Positions 1,801 through 54,681 of a DNA stretch of 64,000 nucleotides are shown here, piece after piece. Below the pieces are notes generated by a model that saw nothing but the letters and a program-made list of their open reading frames with translations, was not told the DNA's origin and made no database searches. How positions within the stretch are numbered: position 1 is the stretch's first letter; every line of letters begins with the position of its first letter. Made by a program: the position numbers and the translations under genes. The stretch comes from Candidatus Micrarchaeota archaeon (GTDB lineage: Archaea; Micrarchaeota; Micrarchaeia; Micrarchaeales; CABMGC01). The stretch covers positions 3,471-67,470 of the forward strand of contig JAJYOL010000001.1 in NCBI GenBank assembly GCA_021796225.1, written 5' to 3'.

Positions 1801-2637
1801 ATGCGTGTAAACAAATATTTGAAGGACATAAAGAACATGCATTTCTCGGAACTAGAGTGCGATTGTTGCGGTTCTCCTGTTTACAGTACGCATCCGGATT
1901 CAGGCTCATTCTGTCATTTCTGCGAGGCATTTACCACCACGCTCAAAGGGCAATCGCCGAATCCCGATGCAGTTGTCATATTCAAGGCGCAGTCACTTAT
2001 GCGTGCAGGAAATCATTCCGCGGCGGCTGACACTCTCGAACAGCTTTCCAAACCTGACGATATACAAACCTTGTTTGGTGCAGGAATGGTTTATTGGGAA
2101 CTTTCAGATGCAATTTACGGCGCAGTAAACTACACCCTTCCAGGATTTATGGAAAAGAATGCCCTTCAAAGAAATGATGAATTTGACAAAAACAAGTATA
2201 ATGCAATGCATCTGCTGTCCAAATCAAAATCCCTGTTGTTCGAATTGCTTTACAACGCAAAGCATGAAGGCACAAACGTACTACCATCCGTGCAATATCT
2301 CGTATTCGCAGCGCAGATGAAACTCCATAGGAGGCTTGATGCTGAACAGTCACTTAAGATCATGCTCTCCGCATCAAAGGATTCACTAACATCCCACTAT
2401 TCTTCAATGGTTTATCATGTAGATACTGAAGGAGAAAAAGCAGATACGTACATAAACAGCGTATCATCGGTAAACGAGATAAATGCGTTGTTCTATCTTG
2501 CACGAAATCTCATAAAGAAACATAACGTTCCCGAAGCCCGCAAGGTCCTCGAATCTCTGGTTTCCATGGTATACATGCCAAAAGCACTGACACTGCTCGG
2601 AAAGATACAAGATTTAGAAGACAAGATAAGACTTTAG
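1801..2637 (+). CDS. Hypothetical protein with N-terminal zinc ribbon (CDCCGSP...CHFCE) and helical repeat region
   Basis: 278 aa ORF with four Cys in CxxC spacing near the N-terminus. No confident family assignment. Confidence 0.45.
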   Translation: MRVNKYLKDIKNMHFSELECDCCGSPVYSTHPDSGSFCHFCEAFTTTLKGQSPNPDAVVIFKAQSLMRAGNHSAAADTLEQLSKPDDIQTLFGAGMVYWELSDAIYGAVNYTLPGFMEKNALQRNDEFDKNKYNAMHLLSKSKSLLFELLYNAKHEGTNVLPSVQYLVFAAQMKLHRRLDAEQSLKIMLSASKDSLTSHYSSMVYHVDTEGEKADTYINSVSSVNEINALFYLARNLIKKHNVPEARKVLESLVSMVYMPKALTLLGKIQDLEDKIRL

Positions 2638-2708
2638 ACTGTTGGATTTAAGGATCCACTCGGTAACGCAAAACGGAGGCAAACGATATTAACCGCAATC
2701 GCAATTAT

Positions 2709-3959
2709 ATGTTGATACGTATATGTAAGAAAGATGTGGTTATAACGGACTGTCCAAGAGCCTACAAATTCAGAATCTATCCCGATGCAGCAAGGCAGGG
2801 AGAGATAGACGAGAGACTAACTCTTGCGCAGCAGTTCTACAATAAACTTCTTGAGAAATCGATTCAATCATATAAGAACGGCAATCACAAAGTATCAATG
2901 GCGCAATTCAACAGATTCGTAAAGGAGGTAATATCGGAGGACAAGAAATTCCTGAAACTCTATTCGCAGACAAGATGCGAGATAGAATACAGGCTTATGA
3001 AGGCATACCAGAACTTCTTCAGGAGAATCAAGGAAGGGAACAAGAAGGCAGGTTTCCCAAGATTCAGGTCAAGAGACAGATACAAGTCAATAACTTATCC
3101 ACAGGACAACGGTTCCTTCTCAATTCACAAAGGAAGGCTCAGGGTTTCAAGGATAGGGACTATGCCGATAGAATTGCACAGGCCAATAAAAGGCAAAATA
3201 AAGACGCTTTCAATCAAGAGGGATGCCGATAAGTATTACGCAATTTTCACTGCTATGACTGAAATCAAGATTCCAGAAGTGGAAAATTCAAATCCGGTAG
3301 GAATAGACCTGGGGCTAAATTCATTCATCGCACTTTCTGACGGAACAAAGATAGAAAAACCGAAGTTCATGCAACAAAAGAGAAAGAGGATTGCCATCTG
3401 GCAAAAAAGAGTTGCAAGAAGAGATAGGGGTTCGAAGAGACGGGAGAAGGCAAAGGCAGGTCTCCGGAAGGCGTACGAACACATAACAAACCAATCGGAT
3501 GACTATCTGCACAAGTTGTCGAAAACACTGGTGACCTCAGGATACACTTCATTCGCAGTAGAAGACCTTCAAATTCAGAATATGGTAAAGAATCACAGGT
3601 TGGCAGGTGCGATTCATGACGCTTCATGGAACAGGTTCATCCAACTGCTCTCATACAAGGCTGAAAGTGCTGGTTTGAGTGTAGTCAAAGTGGATGCAAG
3701 GAACACCTCAAAGGAATGCAGTAATTGTGGCAACATCCAAGATATGCCACTCTCGGAGAGGACATACAACTGCCAGAGATGCGGAATGTCAAAAGACAGA
3801 GATATAAACGCATCGATAAACATATTGCATAGGGCAACTACCCTCGGACAGAGGGAAGGTCACGCTCAGGGAGAGAATGTAAGACCTCAACAGGAGGCAG
3901 TTCTCGAAGAACTGAGAACCGATAAAACACATCCTTTGCGGGATGCAGTGATTGCATGA
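2709..3959 (+). CDS. tnpB: IS200/IS605-family TnpB (OrfB, RuvC-like RNA-guided nuclease), solo copy
   Basis: N-terminal YKFRIYPD motif. Central RuvC-like region. C-terminal zinc finger CSNCG...CQRCG followed by DRDINASINI, typical of the TnpB RuvC-III region. Confidence 0.85.
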   Translation: MLIRICKKDVVITDCPRAYKFRIYPDAARQGEIDERLTLAQQFYNKLLEKSIQSYKNGNHKVSMAQFNRFVKEVISEDKKFLKLYSQTRCEIEYRLMKAYQNFFRRIKEGNKKAGFPRFRSRDRYKSITYPQDNGSFSIHKGRLRVSRIGTMPIELHRPIKGKIKTLSIKRDADKYYAIFTAMTEIKIPEVENSNPVGIDLGLNSFIALSDGTKIEKPKFMQQKRKRIAIWQKRVARRDRGSKRREKAKAGLRKAYEHITNQSDDYLHKLSKTLVTSGYTSFAVEDLQIQNMVKNHRLAGAIHDASWNRFIQLLSYKAESAGLSVVKVDARNTSKECSNCGNIQDMPLSERTYNCQRCGMSKDRDINASINILHRATTLGQREGHAQGENVRPQQEAVLEELRTDKTHPLRDAVIA

Positions 3960-4010
3960 ATGCAGAGGAAGCCCACACCGTTTACGGGTGGGAGGATGTC
4001 ACACTCCATA
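3960..4010 (+). ncRNA. Putative TnpB-associated omegaRNA / right-end element (hairpin CCCACACCG-TTTA-CGGGTGGG followed by AGGATGTCACACT)
   Basis: Immediately 3' of the tnpB stop. The same hairpin architecture and the GGGAGGATGTCA(C/G)ACT motif recur after the second tnpB at 54313..54345. Confidence 0.45.
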
Positions 4011-4039
4011 TCGCATGTATGTAACGCGCAATTAGATCG

Positions 4040-5819
4040 GTGGATATCATGGCAGGCATTCCTGAAAACAAACGCGCATTTCTTTCAAATGGGCTGACTT
4101 CCGCGATAGAACTTTCCGGCTCTATCGATTGGTTTCCTTGTCCGCGTTTCGATTCCCCCTCTTTATTCAGTAAAATACTTGATGAAAAATCCGGGGGGAA
4201 GTTCTCAATCCGTCCGGAACAGGAATATTCCGTTGAGAGCGTATATCTCCCAAAGACTCTTGCACTGGAAAGCACCTTTACAACAAAGGACGGGAAATTG
4301 AAACTTACGGATTTTATGCCAATAGGCGTGCCTTCGATAATTCGGATGTTTGAATCAGAAATTCCTTTCATAGCGGAAATAGATCCTATCTTCGACAATG
4401 CCATGACACGCCCATCCATTGAGGAGTTGGAACAGGGTTACGTATTCAAAAATTACAAAACGTCAGAAAGTTTTGAGGTCCGCTTTACCGGAAACTATGA
4501 GATATTAGGGCGGGGTCTCGTAAGATTTCTTCCCGGAAATGGGCACATACTCTCCATATATTTCAAAAACTTCAAATACGGCCTTTTCAGCAAGAAGGGT
4601 TTCGTATATCCATTTCCAAAAGAGGCTCTTGGGATAACCACGGAATATTGGGAGAGCCAGGTATCTGCAGCACGCGACGTGAAAAATTTTACGGATGCGT
4701 ATTACAGGTCTATAGCTGTAATGATAGGGCTCATGTATTTTCCATCGGGCGGAATTATAGCGGCTCCAACCTCATCGATACCGGAAATAATCGGGCAGAG
4801 CAGGAATTGGGACTACCGTTACGTGTGGGTAAGGGATTCTGCATATGCGATAGAGGCTCTTGCAAATGCGGGTCTTGTATCGAAAGCTTCCAGAATACTT
4901 AATTTTCTGATAAGCGTTCTCGACCCATCATCAAAGAGCTTTGATCATCCTCTTTTTCAGATAGACGGCACCGCCCCCCCCTCCAGAGGAAGAATTGGGA
5001 TGGCTGCAGGGATACAAATCGTCAAGACCCGTACGCATCGGCAATGCGGCATATCAGCAGGTCCAAATGGATTGCGAAGGAGCGTTCATCGACGCTTTGC
5101 ATACGTATGTGGCTAAAACACAGGATTTCAATTATCTTAAAGAGAACATGTGGGCCGTGCATTCGATAGCGAAATGGACGGAATCGTCATGGAAATTGGA
5201 CGGTACTTCATTATGGGAAGAACGCGAAGTAGGCAGGCATTACGTTCATTCGAAGGTCATGTGCTGGGTGTCCATGGACAGGGCGGCAAAAATGGCGCAA
5301 ATGCTGGAAAACAACACTGAAGCTGCCAAATGGCACGCGGAAGCCGACAAAATAAAGAAAGACATTTTGGAAAAAGGGATCTCGAAGACGCATGGCGGAT
5401 TTACCAAATATTATGACGGAGAAGAAACGGATTCATCCCTGCTTCTGCTTCCCCTCTACGGATTTGTCGATGCAAATGATCCTGTATTTTCAAAAACGCT
5501 GCGTCAGATAGAAAAGGAATTGATTACAAAGGAAGGGCTCATGATTCGATACAAATCCGACATGATGGGCAGCATAGTAAACCCGTTTACGCTTCTGAAC
5601 GCATGGCTGGCAAGAGTCTACATAAAACGTGGCGAAATCGACAAGGCTAAGGCAACAATAGACACCATGCTGAGTTATGCCAACGATCTGCTCCTTTTTG
5701 CAGAGCATGTAAATGCCGAGACAAGGGAACCTCTTGGGAATTTCCCGCAACTCTTTCCACATGCTGGTTTAGTACAGGCAATACTTGAATACGAGGATGC
5801 AGTTTCCTCTAAAAAGTAG
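4040..5819 (+). pseudogene. GH15 glucoamylase-family glycoside hydrolase, interrupted by a +1 frameshift in a C8 homopolymer (4974..4981)
   Basis: The N-terminal SIDWFPCPRFDSPSLF region matches archaeal GH15. The C-terminal part continues in another frame with PPPEEELGWLQGYKSSRPVRIGNAAYQQVQMDCEG (GH15 motif) and then DYRYVWVRDS. The two ORFs, 4040..5116 and 4995..5819, overlap. Confidence 0.7.
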
Positions 5820-51686: not shown

Positions 51687-52526
51687 ATGAAATCAAAACT
51701 TCAATCCGCAATGGAATATCTCATGACATATGGATGGGCTATACTAGTCATTGCGGTTGTTCTAGGTGTTTTGTACTCGCTAGGAATTTTTAGTCCGTCA
51801 AACTTCGCACCGAAGGCACAGCCTGGAAGCTGTCAAGTATTCAGACCGAACGGCCCTGGAACGAATTACGATATAAATCTTGAAGGAACGTGCAGCGGCG
51901 AACTGCCTGAATATGCTGCGCAATTCGATGGCAAATCAAGTTACATAAATGCCGGCGAGAGTTCGCTGCTGCAATCGAATACTTTTACTATAACGGCATG
52001 GGTAAATCCCGCAACGCTCGATTTAAGCGGAAATGCCATAACCGGCAGCTCTTCTCCAAGCGGCGTCGAGTTCAGACTGGCAAATTCCGGGGGGAAATTA
52101 TACCTGCAAGCACTCAAGGAAGACATAACTGGAATAGGGACATCTACAGGATACGTATCTGCAGGCACTTGGAGTTTTGTCGCAGTAACATACAATTCAA
52201 GTGCAAATGGTGCTTATGCCTATTACGTAAATGGGGCAAATGCAGGTTCCGGAAACAACTTGCAAACTTTCTCATGGAGCAGCCAATACATAGGAAAACA
52301 ATCAAGCAACACGGAATACTTCAACGGCATGCTCTCAAATGTGCAAATATACAACGTTTCGTTATCGGGAAATGATGTTGCCGCTTTGTACGCCGAAGGC
52401 ATAGGGGGAACACCTACAGATTTACGGCACATATGCGGCTGGTGGCCGCTGAACGGAAATGCGAACGATTACAGCGGAAACAACAACGACGGCATACCAA
52501 CTAACATTATTTACAAAAATACCTAG
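51687..52526 (+). CDS. Class III signal peptide pilin-like LamG protein, paralog 5, 3'-truncated by IS insertion
   Basis: Ends ...NDGIPTNIIYKNT* and lacks the conserved TG(S/T)WQ(S/G)GY(S/T)AP tail. A remnant of the tail sequence is found after the IS right end, at about 54352..54380. Confidence 0.75.
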   Translation: MKSKLQSAMEYLMTYGWAILVIAVVLGVLYSLGIFSPSNFAPKAQPGSCQVFRPNGPGTNYDINLEGTCSGELPEYAAQFDGKSSYINAGESSLLQSNTFTITAWVNPATLDLSGNAITGSSSPSGVEFRLANSGGKLYLQALKEDITGIGTSTGYVSAGTWSFVAVTYNSSANGAYAYYVNGANAGSGNNLQTFSWSSQYIGKQSSNTEYFNGMLSNVQIYNVSLSGNDVAALYAEGIGGTPTDLRHICGWWPLNGNANDYSGNNNDGIPTNIIYKNT

Positions 52527-52632
52527 CAGAAAGCCCACGATTTCCAATCGTGGGATGAATGCGAATGTCTTGAAATTTGATAGAAACATATCTATATAAA
52601 TTAGAAGGGATATACAGTATCTAAGAATTAAT

Positions 52633-53025
52633 ATGGGATACAAACATAAGCGAACAAGTGTGGCAATGGTAAACTACCACATAGTATTCTGTCCGAAATA
52701 TAGGAGAAAGTTATTGGTAGGTGGCATAAAGAAAAGGCTTGAAGAGGTTATGTTTGATGTCGCACTTGAAAATGGGTGGAAGATTATTTCAAAAGAGGTC
52801 ATGCCAGATCACGTCCATCTATTCGTCTCTGCTGATGTAAGGTCAAGACCAGAGATAGTAGTCAAGAGATTCAAAGGCAGAAGTTCAAGGTATCTGCGCA
52901 ATGAGTTTCCAGAGCTCTTGAAGATGCCAACATTGTGGACTCGCTCATACTTTCTTTCAACCGCAGGAAATGTGTCCGCTGCGACAATCAAGAAATATAT
53001 AGAACAACAATGGGATAAAGTATGA
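52633..53025 (+). CDS. tnpA: IS200-type Y1 HUH transposase TnpA
   Basis: 130 aa; HUH motif HVHLFV; catalytic Tyr region TLWTRSYF. Confidence 0.85.
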   Translation: MGYKHKRTSVAMVNYHIVFCPKYRRKLLVGGIKKRLEEVMFDVALENGWKIISKEVMPDHVHLFVSADVRSRPEIVVKRFKGRSSRYLRNEFPELLKMPTLWTRSYFLSTAGNVSAATIKKYIEQQWDKV

Positions 53026-53038
53026 AACAAAAACGTTA

Positions 53039-53260
53039 ATGGTCTTGGGCATAATCTCAATACTTTTGGATTTGATAATCTCTATCAGTAGTGCCATTTC
53101 CTACTTTAACAGAGCGTGCAGCTGTCCTGCTGAAATTGTAGGGCAACCTCCAATACCTTGTTGCACAGACCCGTCTGCAATCTATCTTATATATTTTGGC
53201 ATAGCCCTTGTAGTAATTGGTCTGATTGCAATAACGGTAAAATGGTTTTATAAAAAGTGA
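53039..53260 (+). CDS. Small hydrophobic ORF between tnpA and tnpB (possibly spurious)
   Basis: 73 aa, Cys-containing hydrophobic peptide. Confidence 0.25.
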   Translation: MVLGIISILLDLIISISSAISYFNRACSCPAEIVGQPPIPCCTDPSAIYLIYFGIALVVIGLIAITVKWFYKK

Positions 53261-53261
53261 T

Positions 53262-54284
53262 ATGATGATTCTAACCTTCAAAATAAAACACGAAAGAAAT
53301 TTCTCCCCTGAGTTAGGAAAGGCAAGAAAGATTGCGGAGTATGTCTTGACACACAAAACAAGGTCTTCTAAGGATGTAAAACAATTCGGTCTAAAATCCG
53401 CAATCGCAAATCAGATACTCAGGAAATATGGAAACAACGAAACAATCAAGAATGTCAATAAGATAAAACTGACTGTTCCTTCTCAGTCGGTCAACGCAAA
53501 CAAAGAGCATAGGACAATAGAAATTCCGTGTCTAAAGTTCACCGCGCCATATAACTTCAGGAACGACTACGATAAGATAAACCAGATAGAACTGGACAAC
53601 GAATACGCCTATGTTTCAGTAAATGTAAAGGAAGAGCCACAAATAGTTCCTCAAACATGGATAGGCGTAGACAGAAACACAACAGGTCATATTGCAGTAG
53701 CAGGAAATCCAGAGACAGGGAAGATTCTGAAACTCGGAAAGGAGGCACTCCATATTCACAAGAAATACAGAAACATAAGAAGGAAGATGCAAAGAGAAGG
53801 AAAGTATAGCGTGGTAAAACGGATAAAGGACAGGGAATCAAGAATAATCAAGAACATAAACCACAACGTCTCAAAGGCAATAGTTGAGGCTGCAAAGGAA
53901 AATAATGCAGGGATAAAGTTGGAGAAACTGGAAGGCATAAGAAAAAACAGGAAGCACATAAGGAACTTCAACTACGGTCTGCATAGTTGGTCGTTCTACC
54001 AATTGCAGACGTTCATTGAATACAAAGCAAAATTATATGGAATACCTCTAACCTACGTGGAGCCTAAAAACACGTCCAAGGACTGTTCAAGGTGCGGAAA
54101 CGAAGGTATTAGAGATTCAAAAAAATTCGTGTGCCAGTCGTGTGGACACGTAGACCATGCCGACGCAAATGCATCGTTCAATATATCGCAGCGTCCTCCA
54201 ATTGGAGAAGGCAGAAGTCAATTGAATGCAGACAGGGATGCATTCAAGGGCAGCACTGATACGCCCCAAGGTGCAACTCTATGA
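53262..54284 (+). CDS. tnpB: IS605-family TnpB (RuvC-like nuclease with C-terminal zinc finger)
   Basis: RuvC-like motifs; zinc finger CSRCGN...CQSCGH; DADANASFNI. Confidence 0.85.
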   Translation: MMILTFKIKHERNFSPELGKARKIAEYVLTHKTRSSKDVKQFGLKSAIANQILRKYGNNETIKNVNKIKLTVPSQSVNANKEHRTIEIPCLKFTAPYNFRNDYDKINQIELDNEYAYVSVNVKEEPQIVPQTWIGVDRNTTGHIAVAGNPETGKILKLGKEALHIHKKYRNIRRKMQREGKYSVVKRIKDRESRIIKNINHNVSKAIVEAAKENNAGIKLEKLEGIRKNRKHIRNFNYGLHSWSFYQLQTFIEYKAKLYGIPLTYVEPKNTSKDCSRCGNEGIRDSKKFVCQSCGHVDHADANASFNISQRPPIGEGRSQLNADRDAFKGSTDTPQGATL

Positions 54285-54352
54285 ACGCAGAGACACCAAA
54301 CCAAAGAGGAACCCCACGAATTTATTCGTGGGAGGATGTCAGACTGCTTCAT
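54285..54352 (+). ncRNA. Putative omegaRNA/right-end RNA of the IS605 element (hairpin plus GGGAGGATGTCAGACT)
   Basis: Same architecture as the 3' flank of the solo tnpB at 3960..4010. Confidence 0.45.
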
Positions 54353-54477
54353 GGGCTTCAACGTATAGCGCTCCTTGAAAGTTGCATTTTAACGAAATTC
54401 TGTCAATAAAGCGTATAAATGCACTCATTTAAATACCACCTCGGTCATAATATGTATCGACCACAGAGGGTTCGAAT

Positions 54478-54681
54478 ATGAACGACAAGTATACGGAACT
54501 TGAACAACAGCTGACGGTGACTGATGCACAGCAGGAGAATCCTGAGATTGCACAGATGCCCTCAAAATTTTCATATCCGAATCCCACTGGTGGCAATAAA
54601 GGCGGCGGGGCATCCAACCCTCTTAATCTGAGAATATTCTCGGCAAGGGACCCGGGGCTCAAGACCGCACTGCGCAAGTAA
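54478..54681 (+). CDS. Small hypothetical protein (low complexity)
   Basis: 67 aa ORF with an upstream purine-rich stretch; uncertain. Confidence 0.25.
   Translation: MNDKYTELEQQLTVTDAQQENPEIAQMPSKFSYPNPTGGNKGGGASNPLNLRIFSARDPGLKTALRK

Follow-up and report, generated by a model that had tools for sequence, protein, structure and literature searches.

Among the closest described systems, the insertion sequence (IS) IS608 inserts 3' of the tetranucleotide TTAC, is cleaved 19 nt 5' of its left and 10 nt 3' of its right subterminal hairpin (IP_L and IP_R, respectively) and carries the left guide tetranucleotide (G_L) AAAG (PMC3201880), while its right guide (G_R) GAAT is found with the right cleavage site (C_R) TCAA (PMC5934647). 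In ISDra2, the right-end element RNA (reRNA) is made up of ~150 nt that cover the 3' end of tnpB and the right end (RE) of the element, with a guide of ~16 nt from the flank (Karvelis 2021). LamG-like proteins are expanded in Micrarchaeota/DPANN archaea, e.g., 'Ca. Mancarchaeum acidiphilum' Mia14, where they have been tied to type IV pilus loci and proposed as host-contact mediators (PMC5498576). Here we describe a locus that joins these subjects, within a stretch of 64,000 nucleotides (the window, to which all coordinates refer) from contig JAJYOL010000001.1 of a Candidatus Micrarchaeota archaeon (GCA_021796225.1, positions 3,471 to 67,470). We conclude, with a probability of about 0.93, that positions 52515..54342 are a complete IS608-type IS inserted precisely 3' of a TTAC, truncating paralog 5 of a LamG protein family. 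An earlier note on this DNA had proposed an IS608-like insertion with TnpA and TnpB, 3' of TTAC in a LamG gene, and that proposal is borne out by matches above family cut-offs, by the hairpins, by ends shared with other copies and by the restored open reading frame (ORF). The features that define the element and the interrupted gene are as follows.

Positions 51687..52514, + strand: body of the LamG-family surface-protein gene, paralog 5 (codons 1-276), within the ORF 51687..52526; Laminin_G_3 (PF13385), E = 5e-25.
Positions 52511..52514, + strand: TTAC insertion target, left cleavage site (C_L) and presumptive transposon-associated motif (TAM) of TnpB; flanks the left end (LE) in 9/9 independent insertions.
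Positions 52515..54342, + (top) strand: IS200/IS605-family IS, 1828 bp; delimited by the limits of homology to six other copies, and its removal restores the ORF.
Positions 52530..52533, + strand: G_L, AAAG, directly 5' of the foot of the LE hairpin; invariant across copies.
Positions 52534..52554, + strand: LE subterminal hairpin, IP_L, with a 9-bp stem; its foot lies 19 nt from the cleavage point.
Positions 54309..54312, + strand: G_R, GAAC, which pairs with the C_R TCAG by the IS608 rule.
Positions 54313..54332, + strand: RE subterminal hairpin, IP_R, CCCACGAATTTATTCGTGGG; 6/8 pairs show compensatory changes across copies.
Positions 54339..54342, + strand: C_R, TCAG, with which the IS ends (its final 4 nt); cleavage falls 10 nt 3' of the foot of the hairpin.
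Positions 54343..54378, + strand: displaced 3' tail of paralog 5, TASWASTYSAP-stop (11 residues), identified by in-silico reconstruction and the family tail.

Five members of the LamG family are present in the window, at about 806, 15186, 49893, 50793 and 51687, and the Laminin_G_3 domain was identified in the interrupted ORF and in two of its sister ORFs. Paralog 5 aligns with the four other paralogs and with more than 2700 homologues, which are named LamG-domain proteins of Candidatus Micrarchaeia, indicating that the host is a DPANN archaeon. As it stands, the ORF encodes 279 residues and ends ...NDGIPTNIIY-KNT-stop, with the TTAC at 52511-52514, both of which had been reported correctly. 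The TTAC arises from the codons ATT-TAC (Ile-Tyr276) and occurs at this codon pair in paralog 5 alone, the other paralogs having TTC-ACC, TAT-ACT or TAT-GTC, which explains why paralog 5 was the one that was hit.

To reconstruct the interrupted gene, every right boundary from 54336 to 54357 was tried. Family-like ends were produced by in-frame boundaries alone, and a gapless alignment to the family was obtained solely at 54342: deletion of 52515..54342 yields an ORF of 287 residues ending ...IIYTASWASTYSAP-stop, and the empty site reads ...AACATTATTTAC/ACTGCTTCATGGGC... in silico, the slash marking the junction. The tail [FYW][TVISE]xxWxxxYxx-X-stop ends 112 of 119 homologues, and an alignment of 79 sequences shows no variation at W280 and Y284 and a conservation of 90% or more at P287. 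One homologue, P0054, ends TNSWASTYSAP (FTNSWASTYSAP), identical to the restored tail at 10 of 11 residues, while the chance that a random 36-mer encodes [TVISE]xxWxxxYxx[PTSH]-stop is ~1.3e-6 per junction offset. It might be argued that the gene naturally ends at IIYKNT-stop, with the IS merely downstream and the resemblance of the tail coincidental, and variant C-termini do exist in the family, as seven of the 119 homologues lack the standard tail (six of these share a shorter ending, ...FTSQYGK). However, the KNT-stop codons sit in the conserved left end of the IS, AAAAAT(A/G)C(C/A)TAG, which is found in copies at unrelated sites, and the restored tail is gapless and in frame with its stop at the family position, a coincidence of ~1e-6 per offset. 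We regard a natural end at this position as effectively refuted.

The reconstruction also bears on where the element stops. The earlier note had placed the right boundary at 54352, which does not hold, since deletion of 52515..54352 gives a frameshift (...NIIYGLQRIALLES...). Its proposed restoration of the conserved C-terminus thus fails with that boundary and succeeds with 52515..54342, so that the refutation test it had set for itself would have given a false failure. It had likewise recognized that the sequence beyond the RE encodes the displaced gene tail (...STYSAP-stop), but this tail starts at 54343 rather than ~54353 and comprises 11 residues rather than the last five or six. A listed ORF of 50 residues at 54226-54378 (+) is an artefact of this arrangement, consisting of the tnpB 3' end and the RE in another frame and running into the tail (...GGCQ-TASWASTYSAP-stop).

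Related copies were sought by a scan of one genome per species. Six were found in other Micrarchaeota metagenome-assembled genomes (MAGs), with TnpB identities of 76-91%, and by BLAST and alignment the homology of the window element to these six begins at 52515 and stops at 54342, the flanks being unrelated. More divergent relatives (L009-L018) were located by the conserved anchors AAAG...ATGAA and AGGATGTCA, and context look-ups yielded two further, more divergent groups, represented by L009 and L014. All nine independent insertions have the same layout: TTAC, then 18-19 nt ending in AAAG, a hairpin, and at the other end GAAC, a hairpin, AGGATG-TCAG and an unrelated flank. The LE spacing is 18 nt in the L014 group. 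Across independent insertions the right flanks do not repeat the TTAC. The AAAG, the GAAC, the AGGATG linker and the TCAG are conserved across copies, and the stem sequences vary by sub-lineage (CCCACGAAT, CCCATC, CCCCTATC) yet stay paired. The shared ends of the nine insertions fix the right end at 54342, not 54352. One copy, L006 (JAGWFS010000066.1, 2214 bp), is on a contig that is almost all IS and is binned in a 'Thaumarchaeota' MAG, which points either to a mobile element having been placed in the wrong bin or to transfer outside Micrarchaeota.

The ends themselves have the properties expected of an IS608-type element. The LE hairpin, CCCACGATT-TCC-AATCGTGGG, which had been described correctly, lies at 52534-52554 and folds as DNA with -11.7 kcal/mol (z = -4.3); both it and the RE hairpin are stable as single-stranded DNA. 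The RE hairpin is indeed present on the same strand, although the string previously quoted for it (GGGAGGATGTCAGACT) in fact covers the last part of the 3' arm, the linker of 10 nt with the cleavage site, and three flanking nucleotides. A same-strand hairpin matching CCCACGAWT...AWTCGTGGG occurs just twice in the whole window (0 expected by chance). The two ends of the IS align to each other as direct repeats, not inverted repeats, and the IS has neither terminal inverted repeats nor a target-site duplication. The spacing from cleavage point to hairpin foot is 19 nt on the LE side (52515-52533) and 10 nt on the RE side (54333-54342). In a test at the sequence level, the pairing pattern of IS608 (positions 1:-3, 2:-4 and 4:-1) was obeyed both by G_L AAAG with C_L TTAC and by G_R GAAC with C_R TCAG. 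The GAAC/TCAG combination retains all three Watson-Crick contacts; at the pair next to the cleavage point it has C:G where IS608 has T:A, a compensated change.

As the window derives from a MAG, and IS elements are often misassembled, we considered whether the junctions could be an assembly chimera of a multi-copy IS, for which the copies L009 and L010, with a shared left flank and different right flanks, might be taken as a precedent. This is very improbable, because both junctions recur in an independent record, DAHXML010000024.1 of GCA_027371795.1, at 99.98% identity over 6.5 kb, and because the flanks rejoin with single-nucleotide precision into an ORF typical of the family, which a chimera would not yield.

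The element carries three co-oriented ORFs on the + strand (tnpA, an ORF of 73 residues that we call orfX, and tnpB), which directly follow the 279-residue ORF.

Positions 52593..52601, + strand: TATATAAAT, candidate archaeal TATA box, ~32 nt upstream of the tnpA ATG.
Positions 52633..53025, + strand: tnpA, Y1 HUH transposase, 130 residues; Pfam Y1_Tnp (PF01797), E = 2e-38.
Positions 53039..53260, + strand: orfX, 73 residues with two hydrophobic segments; an ORF occupies the same slot in other IS copies.
Positions 53262..54284, + strand: tnpB, homologue of compact RNA-guided nucleases, 340 residues; Pfam PF07282 (Cas12f1-like_TNB), E = 4e-24.

TnpA scores 137 bits against the NCBIfam model transpos_IS200 (cut-off 55) and its catalytic motifs are intact (H60-V-H62, Y122 and Q126). 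Its nearest structures in the PDB are the Sulfolobus IS200-type transposases 2EC2 (8e-37) and 2F4F, followed by the TnpA of IS608 (2A6M, 8e-29) and then that of ISDra2. The TATA-like motif upstream of tnpA is also present in L009, L012 and L014. TnpB scores 169 bits against guided_TnpB (cut-off 100), has the RuvC residues D137/E221/D301 and a zinc finger (CSRC...CQSC), and its C-terminal half aligns with TnpB/Cas12f structures in the PDB. The TnpB proteins of this lineage are unusually compact, at 339-340 residues, with ~136 residues ahead of RuvC-I. In L009 (3246-4328) and L014 (3246-4331) a CGA replaces the usual TGA stop of tnpB, and the ORF crosses the RE into the flank to give 360-361 residues.

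The last ~300 nt are the most conserved part of the element and overlap a putative RNA.

Positions 54045..54342, 5' limit uncertain, + strand: putative scaffold of an omega-RNA (reRNA), which overlaps with the 3' end of tnpB and with the RE and is indicated by covariation and suppressed synonymous change.
Positions 54222-54230/54239-54247, 54248-54251/54263-54266 and 54270-54273/54294-54297, plus the RE hairpin, + strand: covariation-supported helices from RNAalifold.

RNAalifold was run on seven copies and then on ten, and the helices it identified lie inside the 3' coding region of tnpB and across its stop codon, in addition to the RE hairpin. In the ten-copy alignment, double-sided compensatory changes were seen at 16 of 48 pairs, compared with 6.1 +/- 1.7 compensatory pairs in shuffled alignments (none of 500 reached 16) and 1-3 in slid registers, and 97.5% of cells are paired. 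The helix 54222-54230/54239-54247 contains four covarying pairs, none of which is broken. Synonymous divergence of tnpB falls from 0.74-0.90 in codons 1-220 to 0.36-0.52 in codons 261-339, with no parallel fall in non-synonymous divergence. Covariation and synonymous constraint thus support a putative omega-RNA at the tnpB 3' end. By analogy with the ISDra2 reRNA (Karvelis 2021), the predicted guide would be the first ~16-20 nt of the displaced gene tail (54343-~54362). We also considered that this guide might target other paralogs and rejected it, as a search of the window allowing up to three mismatches returned no second site for TTAC followed by the guide, and the other paralogs also lack the TTAC at that codon.

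A mechanism can be proposed on this basis. The IS would have integrated as single-stranded DNA directly 3' of the TTAC. If TnpA behaves as the biochemistry of IS608, ISDra2 and ISGst suggests, it would recognize the hairpins as single-stranded DNA structures, locate the cleavage sites by base interactions of AAAG with TTAC and of GAAC with TCAG, excise the top strand as a circle and re-insert it 3' of a TTAC. TnpB with the omega-RNA, whose scaffold would be the tnpB 3' end and the RE, would cut the scarless excision product, TTAC + ACTGCTTCATGG..., and this cut would drive re-copying of the IS. In keeping with the homing model, TnpB would then naturally act on the donor joint, TTAC+ACTGCTTC..., and the TCAG within the RE, two positions off TTAC, would protect the element itself, by analogy with ISGst.

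A number of results weigh against our reading or against parts of it. The earlier note had suggested that other strains or metagenomic reads be compared for an uninterrupted allele, and none was found here: a search of 5.8 billion clustered proteins with the 287-residue query returned the truncated 279-residue form (100%), with the next match at 55%, and searches of metagenome contigs with a 24-nt empty junction and with a 23-nt paralog-specific sequence each gave 0 hits. What is said of the gene before the insertion thus comes from reconstruction. One IS copy is present within the window, and when identical TnpA and TnpB sequences were sought to locate others, the same insertion in a second assembly was all that was returned, which gives no sign of recent mobility in this genome. 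The copy L010 has the C_R TCAC with the G_R CAAC, in violation of the guide/cleavage pairing rule. A scan of 52300-54600 against Rfam returned one sub-threshold chance hit and no Rfam family, and HpyTnpB, the TnpB of IS608, was inactive in one published assay, so activity of the window TnpB cannot be assumed from homology. With respect to the structural weight of the lost tail, AlphaFold modelled residues 257-287 of the reconstructed protein with predicted local distance difference test (pLDDT) values of about 31-37 and no secondary structure.

As regards L010, it shares its left flank and IS (~2487-4306 in both) with L009, and their right flanks differ (Amidohydro_1 vs HhH-GPD); its right end may have been rearranged by the IS, may have decayed or may be misassembled.

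That one copy is detectable in the genome data and no empty site was found could also be read to mean that the IS is a fixed, immobile relic and paralog 5 a decaying pseudogene, with nothing at the locus active, and the orfX of the window, which lacks its upstream start codon, would fit such decay. However, neither TnpA nor TnpB is shortened and no catalytic residue is missing from either; the window element matches the other copies exactly at its two ends and in its two guide tetranucleotides, and the lineage has inserted independently at nine or more sites, with 76-91% identity. Moreover, apart from the insertion itself, no disabling mutation is present in the gene body or in the displaced tail, a point in favour of a recent event. 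We therefore think a relic quite unlikely, and judge from these sequence features that the IS is probably still mobile.

What the insertion has done to the protein was addressed with AlphaFold, using the reconstructed sequence and 78 homologues. In the model, a helix at the N-terminus (residues 5-31) and a jelly-roll core (~78-253, pLDDT mostly 85-97) are predicted with confidence, and by Foldseek the core matches complete pentraxin/LamG domains (E = 1e-10, TM-score to target 0.6-0.7, ~200 columns). The interrupted protein is thus predicted to carry a concanavalin-A-like beta-sandwich (LamG-like jelly-roll) domain. The lost tail had been thought to complete the LamG fold. We considered it as a beta-strand of the LamG sandwich and set this aside as supported by neither AlphaFold nor Foldseek: the core is complete without the tail. 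Nevertheless, the strong conservation of the tail implies that it matters, perhaps through contacts that are invisible in a model of the monomer, and the loss of 11 residues including W280 and Y284, and their replacement by KNT-stop, probably impairs paralog 5, as judged from the alignment.

Two of the most conserved segments of the subfamily, residues 41-74 and 257-287, are poorly modelled by AlphaFold (pLDDT <50). Their invariant residues are G47, C49, R53, G67, C69 and P74 in the first and D261-G264, W280 and Y284 in the second, and the two segments may form a shared module or a filament/partner interface. The earlier label 'pilin' could not be upheld, as no pilin model of Pfam or NCBIfam matches: the 82-87 N-terminal residues gave nothing in Pfam, even with the threshold relaxed to E <= 10, or in NCBIfam. 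The N-terminal motif QSAMEYLMTYGWA presumably resembles class III signal peptides, and together with the predicted helix-then-globular architecture it would suggest a 'pilin-like' protein.

It is feasible that the insertion is tolerated, the 279-residue protein being functional, or that it serves as a reversible switch through scarless excision by TnpA. The predicted jelly-roll lies wholly upstream of the break, the model leaves the final 30 residues disordered, and excision of IS200/IS605 elements is scarless by mechanism. Yet the invariance of W280 and Y284 and the conservation of P287 at 90% or more point to strong selection on the lost tail, and TnpB-guided recutting of the donor joint would be expected to oppose stable reversion. 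On balance we find tolerance or switching rather unlikely. The insertion may even be a reversible off-switch, policed by TnpB, on a host-contact adhesin paralog of a DPANN symbiont, a weaker reading than that offered below for orfX.

The two hydrophobic segments of the orfX product flank a conserved CxCPAEI[VI]GxPxxPC(P)CTD loop, and the protein has no Pfam match. ORFs of this type, encoding 73-82 residues, are present in L003 (3257-3499), L004, L005 and L009-L018 (3001-3249 in L009 and L014), while L007 has a different transmembrane mini-ORF in this slot and L008 has no spacer there. Pairwise dN/dS values are 0.14-0.61, and orfX is under purifying selection. The family is rare: a word-indexed search returned eight relatives and an exhaustive profile search 19 representative clusters. 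The two relatives whose context was checked (12 loci) lie between or beside Y1_Tnp and TnpB genes at unrelated genomic sites. In most copies the stop and start codons of orfX overlap those of both neighbours, an arrangement of translational coupling, and in the window the first six codons, including the start codon overlapping the tnpA stop, have been lost by a 1-nt indel. We tentatively raise the possibility that the Micrarchaeota IS608-like lineage is a three-gene variant, in which orfX (~73-82 residues, four cysteines) is an undescribed IS accessory factor. It might act at the membrane, e.g., in addiction or regulation.

A second, unrelated tnpB stands alone at 2709-3959 (+), ~1 kb downstream of LamG paralog 1 (806-1717). 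It encodes 416 residues, scores 278 bits against the NCBIfam model guided_TnpB and is 25% identical to the TnpB of the IS. This gene is followed by an RE-like end, GAAG-hairpin(3972-3992)-AGGATG-TCAC, ending at 4002, in which the guide/cleavage pair fits the IS608 rule, and it has no tnpA and no obvious LE hairpin at 2640-2708.

The insertion itself is a textbook and well-understood event, delimited here with unusual clarity, and the value of its description lies mainly in annotation and in the exact ends of the element, as well as in explaining the truncation of one paralog in an expanded DPANN surface-protein family. The artefactual 50-residue ORF at 54226-54378 is a possible source of mis-annotation by gene callers. 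The IS608 rule set (TTAC, 19/10-nt spacing and tetranucleotide pairing) is unchanged in this DPANN lineage, with a compensated G_R/C_R variant. A compact TnpB of 340 residues with a candidate TAM, TTAC, and a covariation-supported scaffold is relevant to the search for miniature genome editors, and orfX adds to the little-studied accessory genes of IS605-family elements.

Compared with the known systems, the interrupted gene shares with the LamG proteins of Mia14 the Laminin_G_3 domain and a predicted pentraxin/LamG-like fold, whereas the conserved N- and C-terminal extensions of the window subfamily are not described in PMC5498576. The element resembles ISDra2 of Deinococcus radiodurans, a peel-and-paste transposon that moves as single-stranded DNA, in its Y1 TnpA and in having covariation and synonymous constraint in the region corresponding to the reRNA. 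It differs from ISDra2 in the target and TAM, which is the pentanucleotide TTGAT there, and in its TnpB, that of ISDra2 having 408 residues and weak sequence similarity (E = 1e-4); the ISDra2 TnpB is an RNA-guided nuclease, whereas the nuclease of the window is predicted from sequence. The parallels with ISGst would be that the nuclease TAM is the TnpA target abutting the LE, that the nuclease naturally targets the donor joint, which consists of the TAM and the RE flank, and that a motif within the RE is two positions off the TAM (here TCAG vs TTAC). ISGst is bacterial, however, with the TAMs TTTAT and TTCAT, and its activity is experimental where that of the window element is predicted. The differences from IS608 of Helicobacter pylori, of the IS605 group, are the host (a bacterium there, an archaeon of the Micrarchaeia here), the C_R/G_R combination (TCAA/GAAT vs TCAG/GAAC), the hairpin sequences, the length of TnpA (155 vs 130 residues, the window TnpA being closer to Sulfolobus 2EC2 and 2F4F), a shorter TnpB (340 residues) and the extra membrane mini-ORF between tnpA and tnpB. 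The element nonetheless shares with IS608 the TTAC target, the 19/10-nt spacing, the G_L AAAG and the same logic of guide/cleavage pairing, along with the bases A-T after the LE hairpin, the co-oriented tnpA and tnpB, and ends that have no inverted repeats and create no target duplication.

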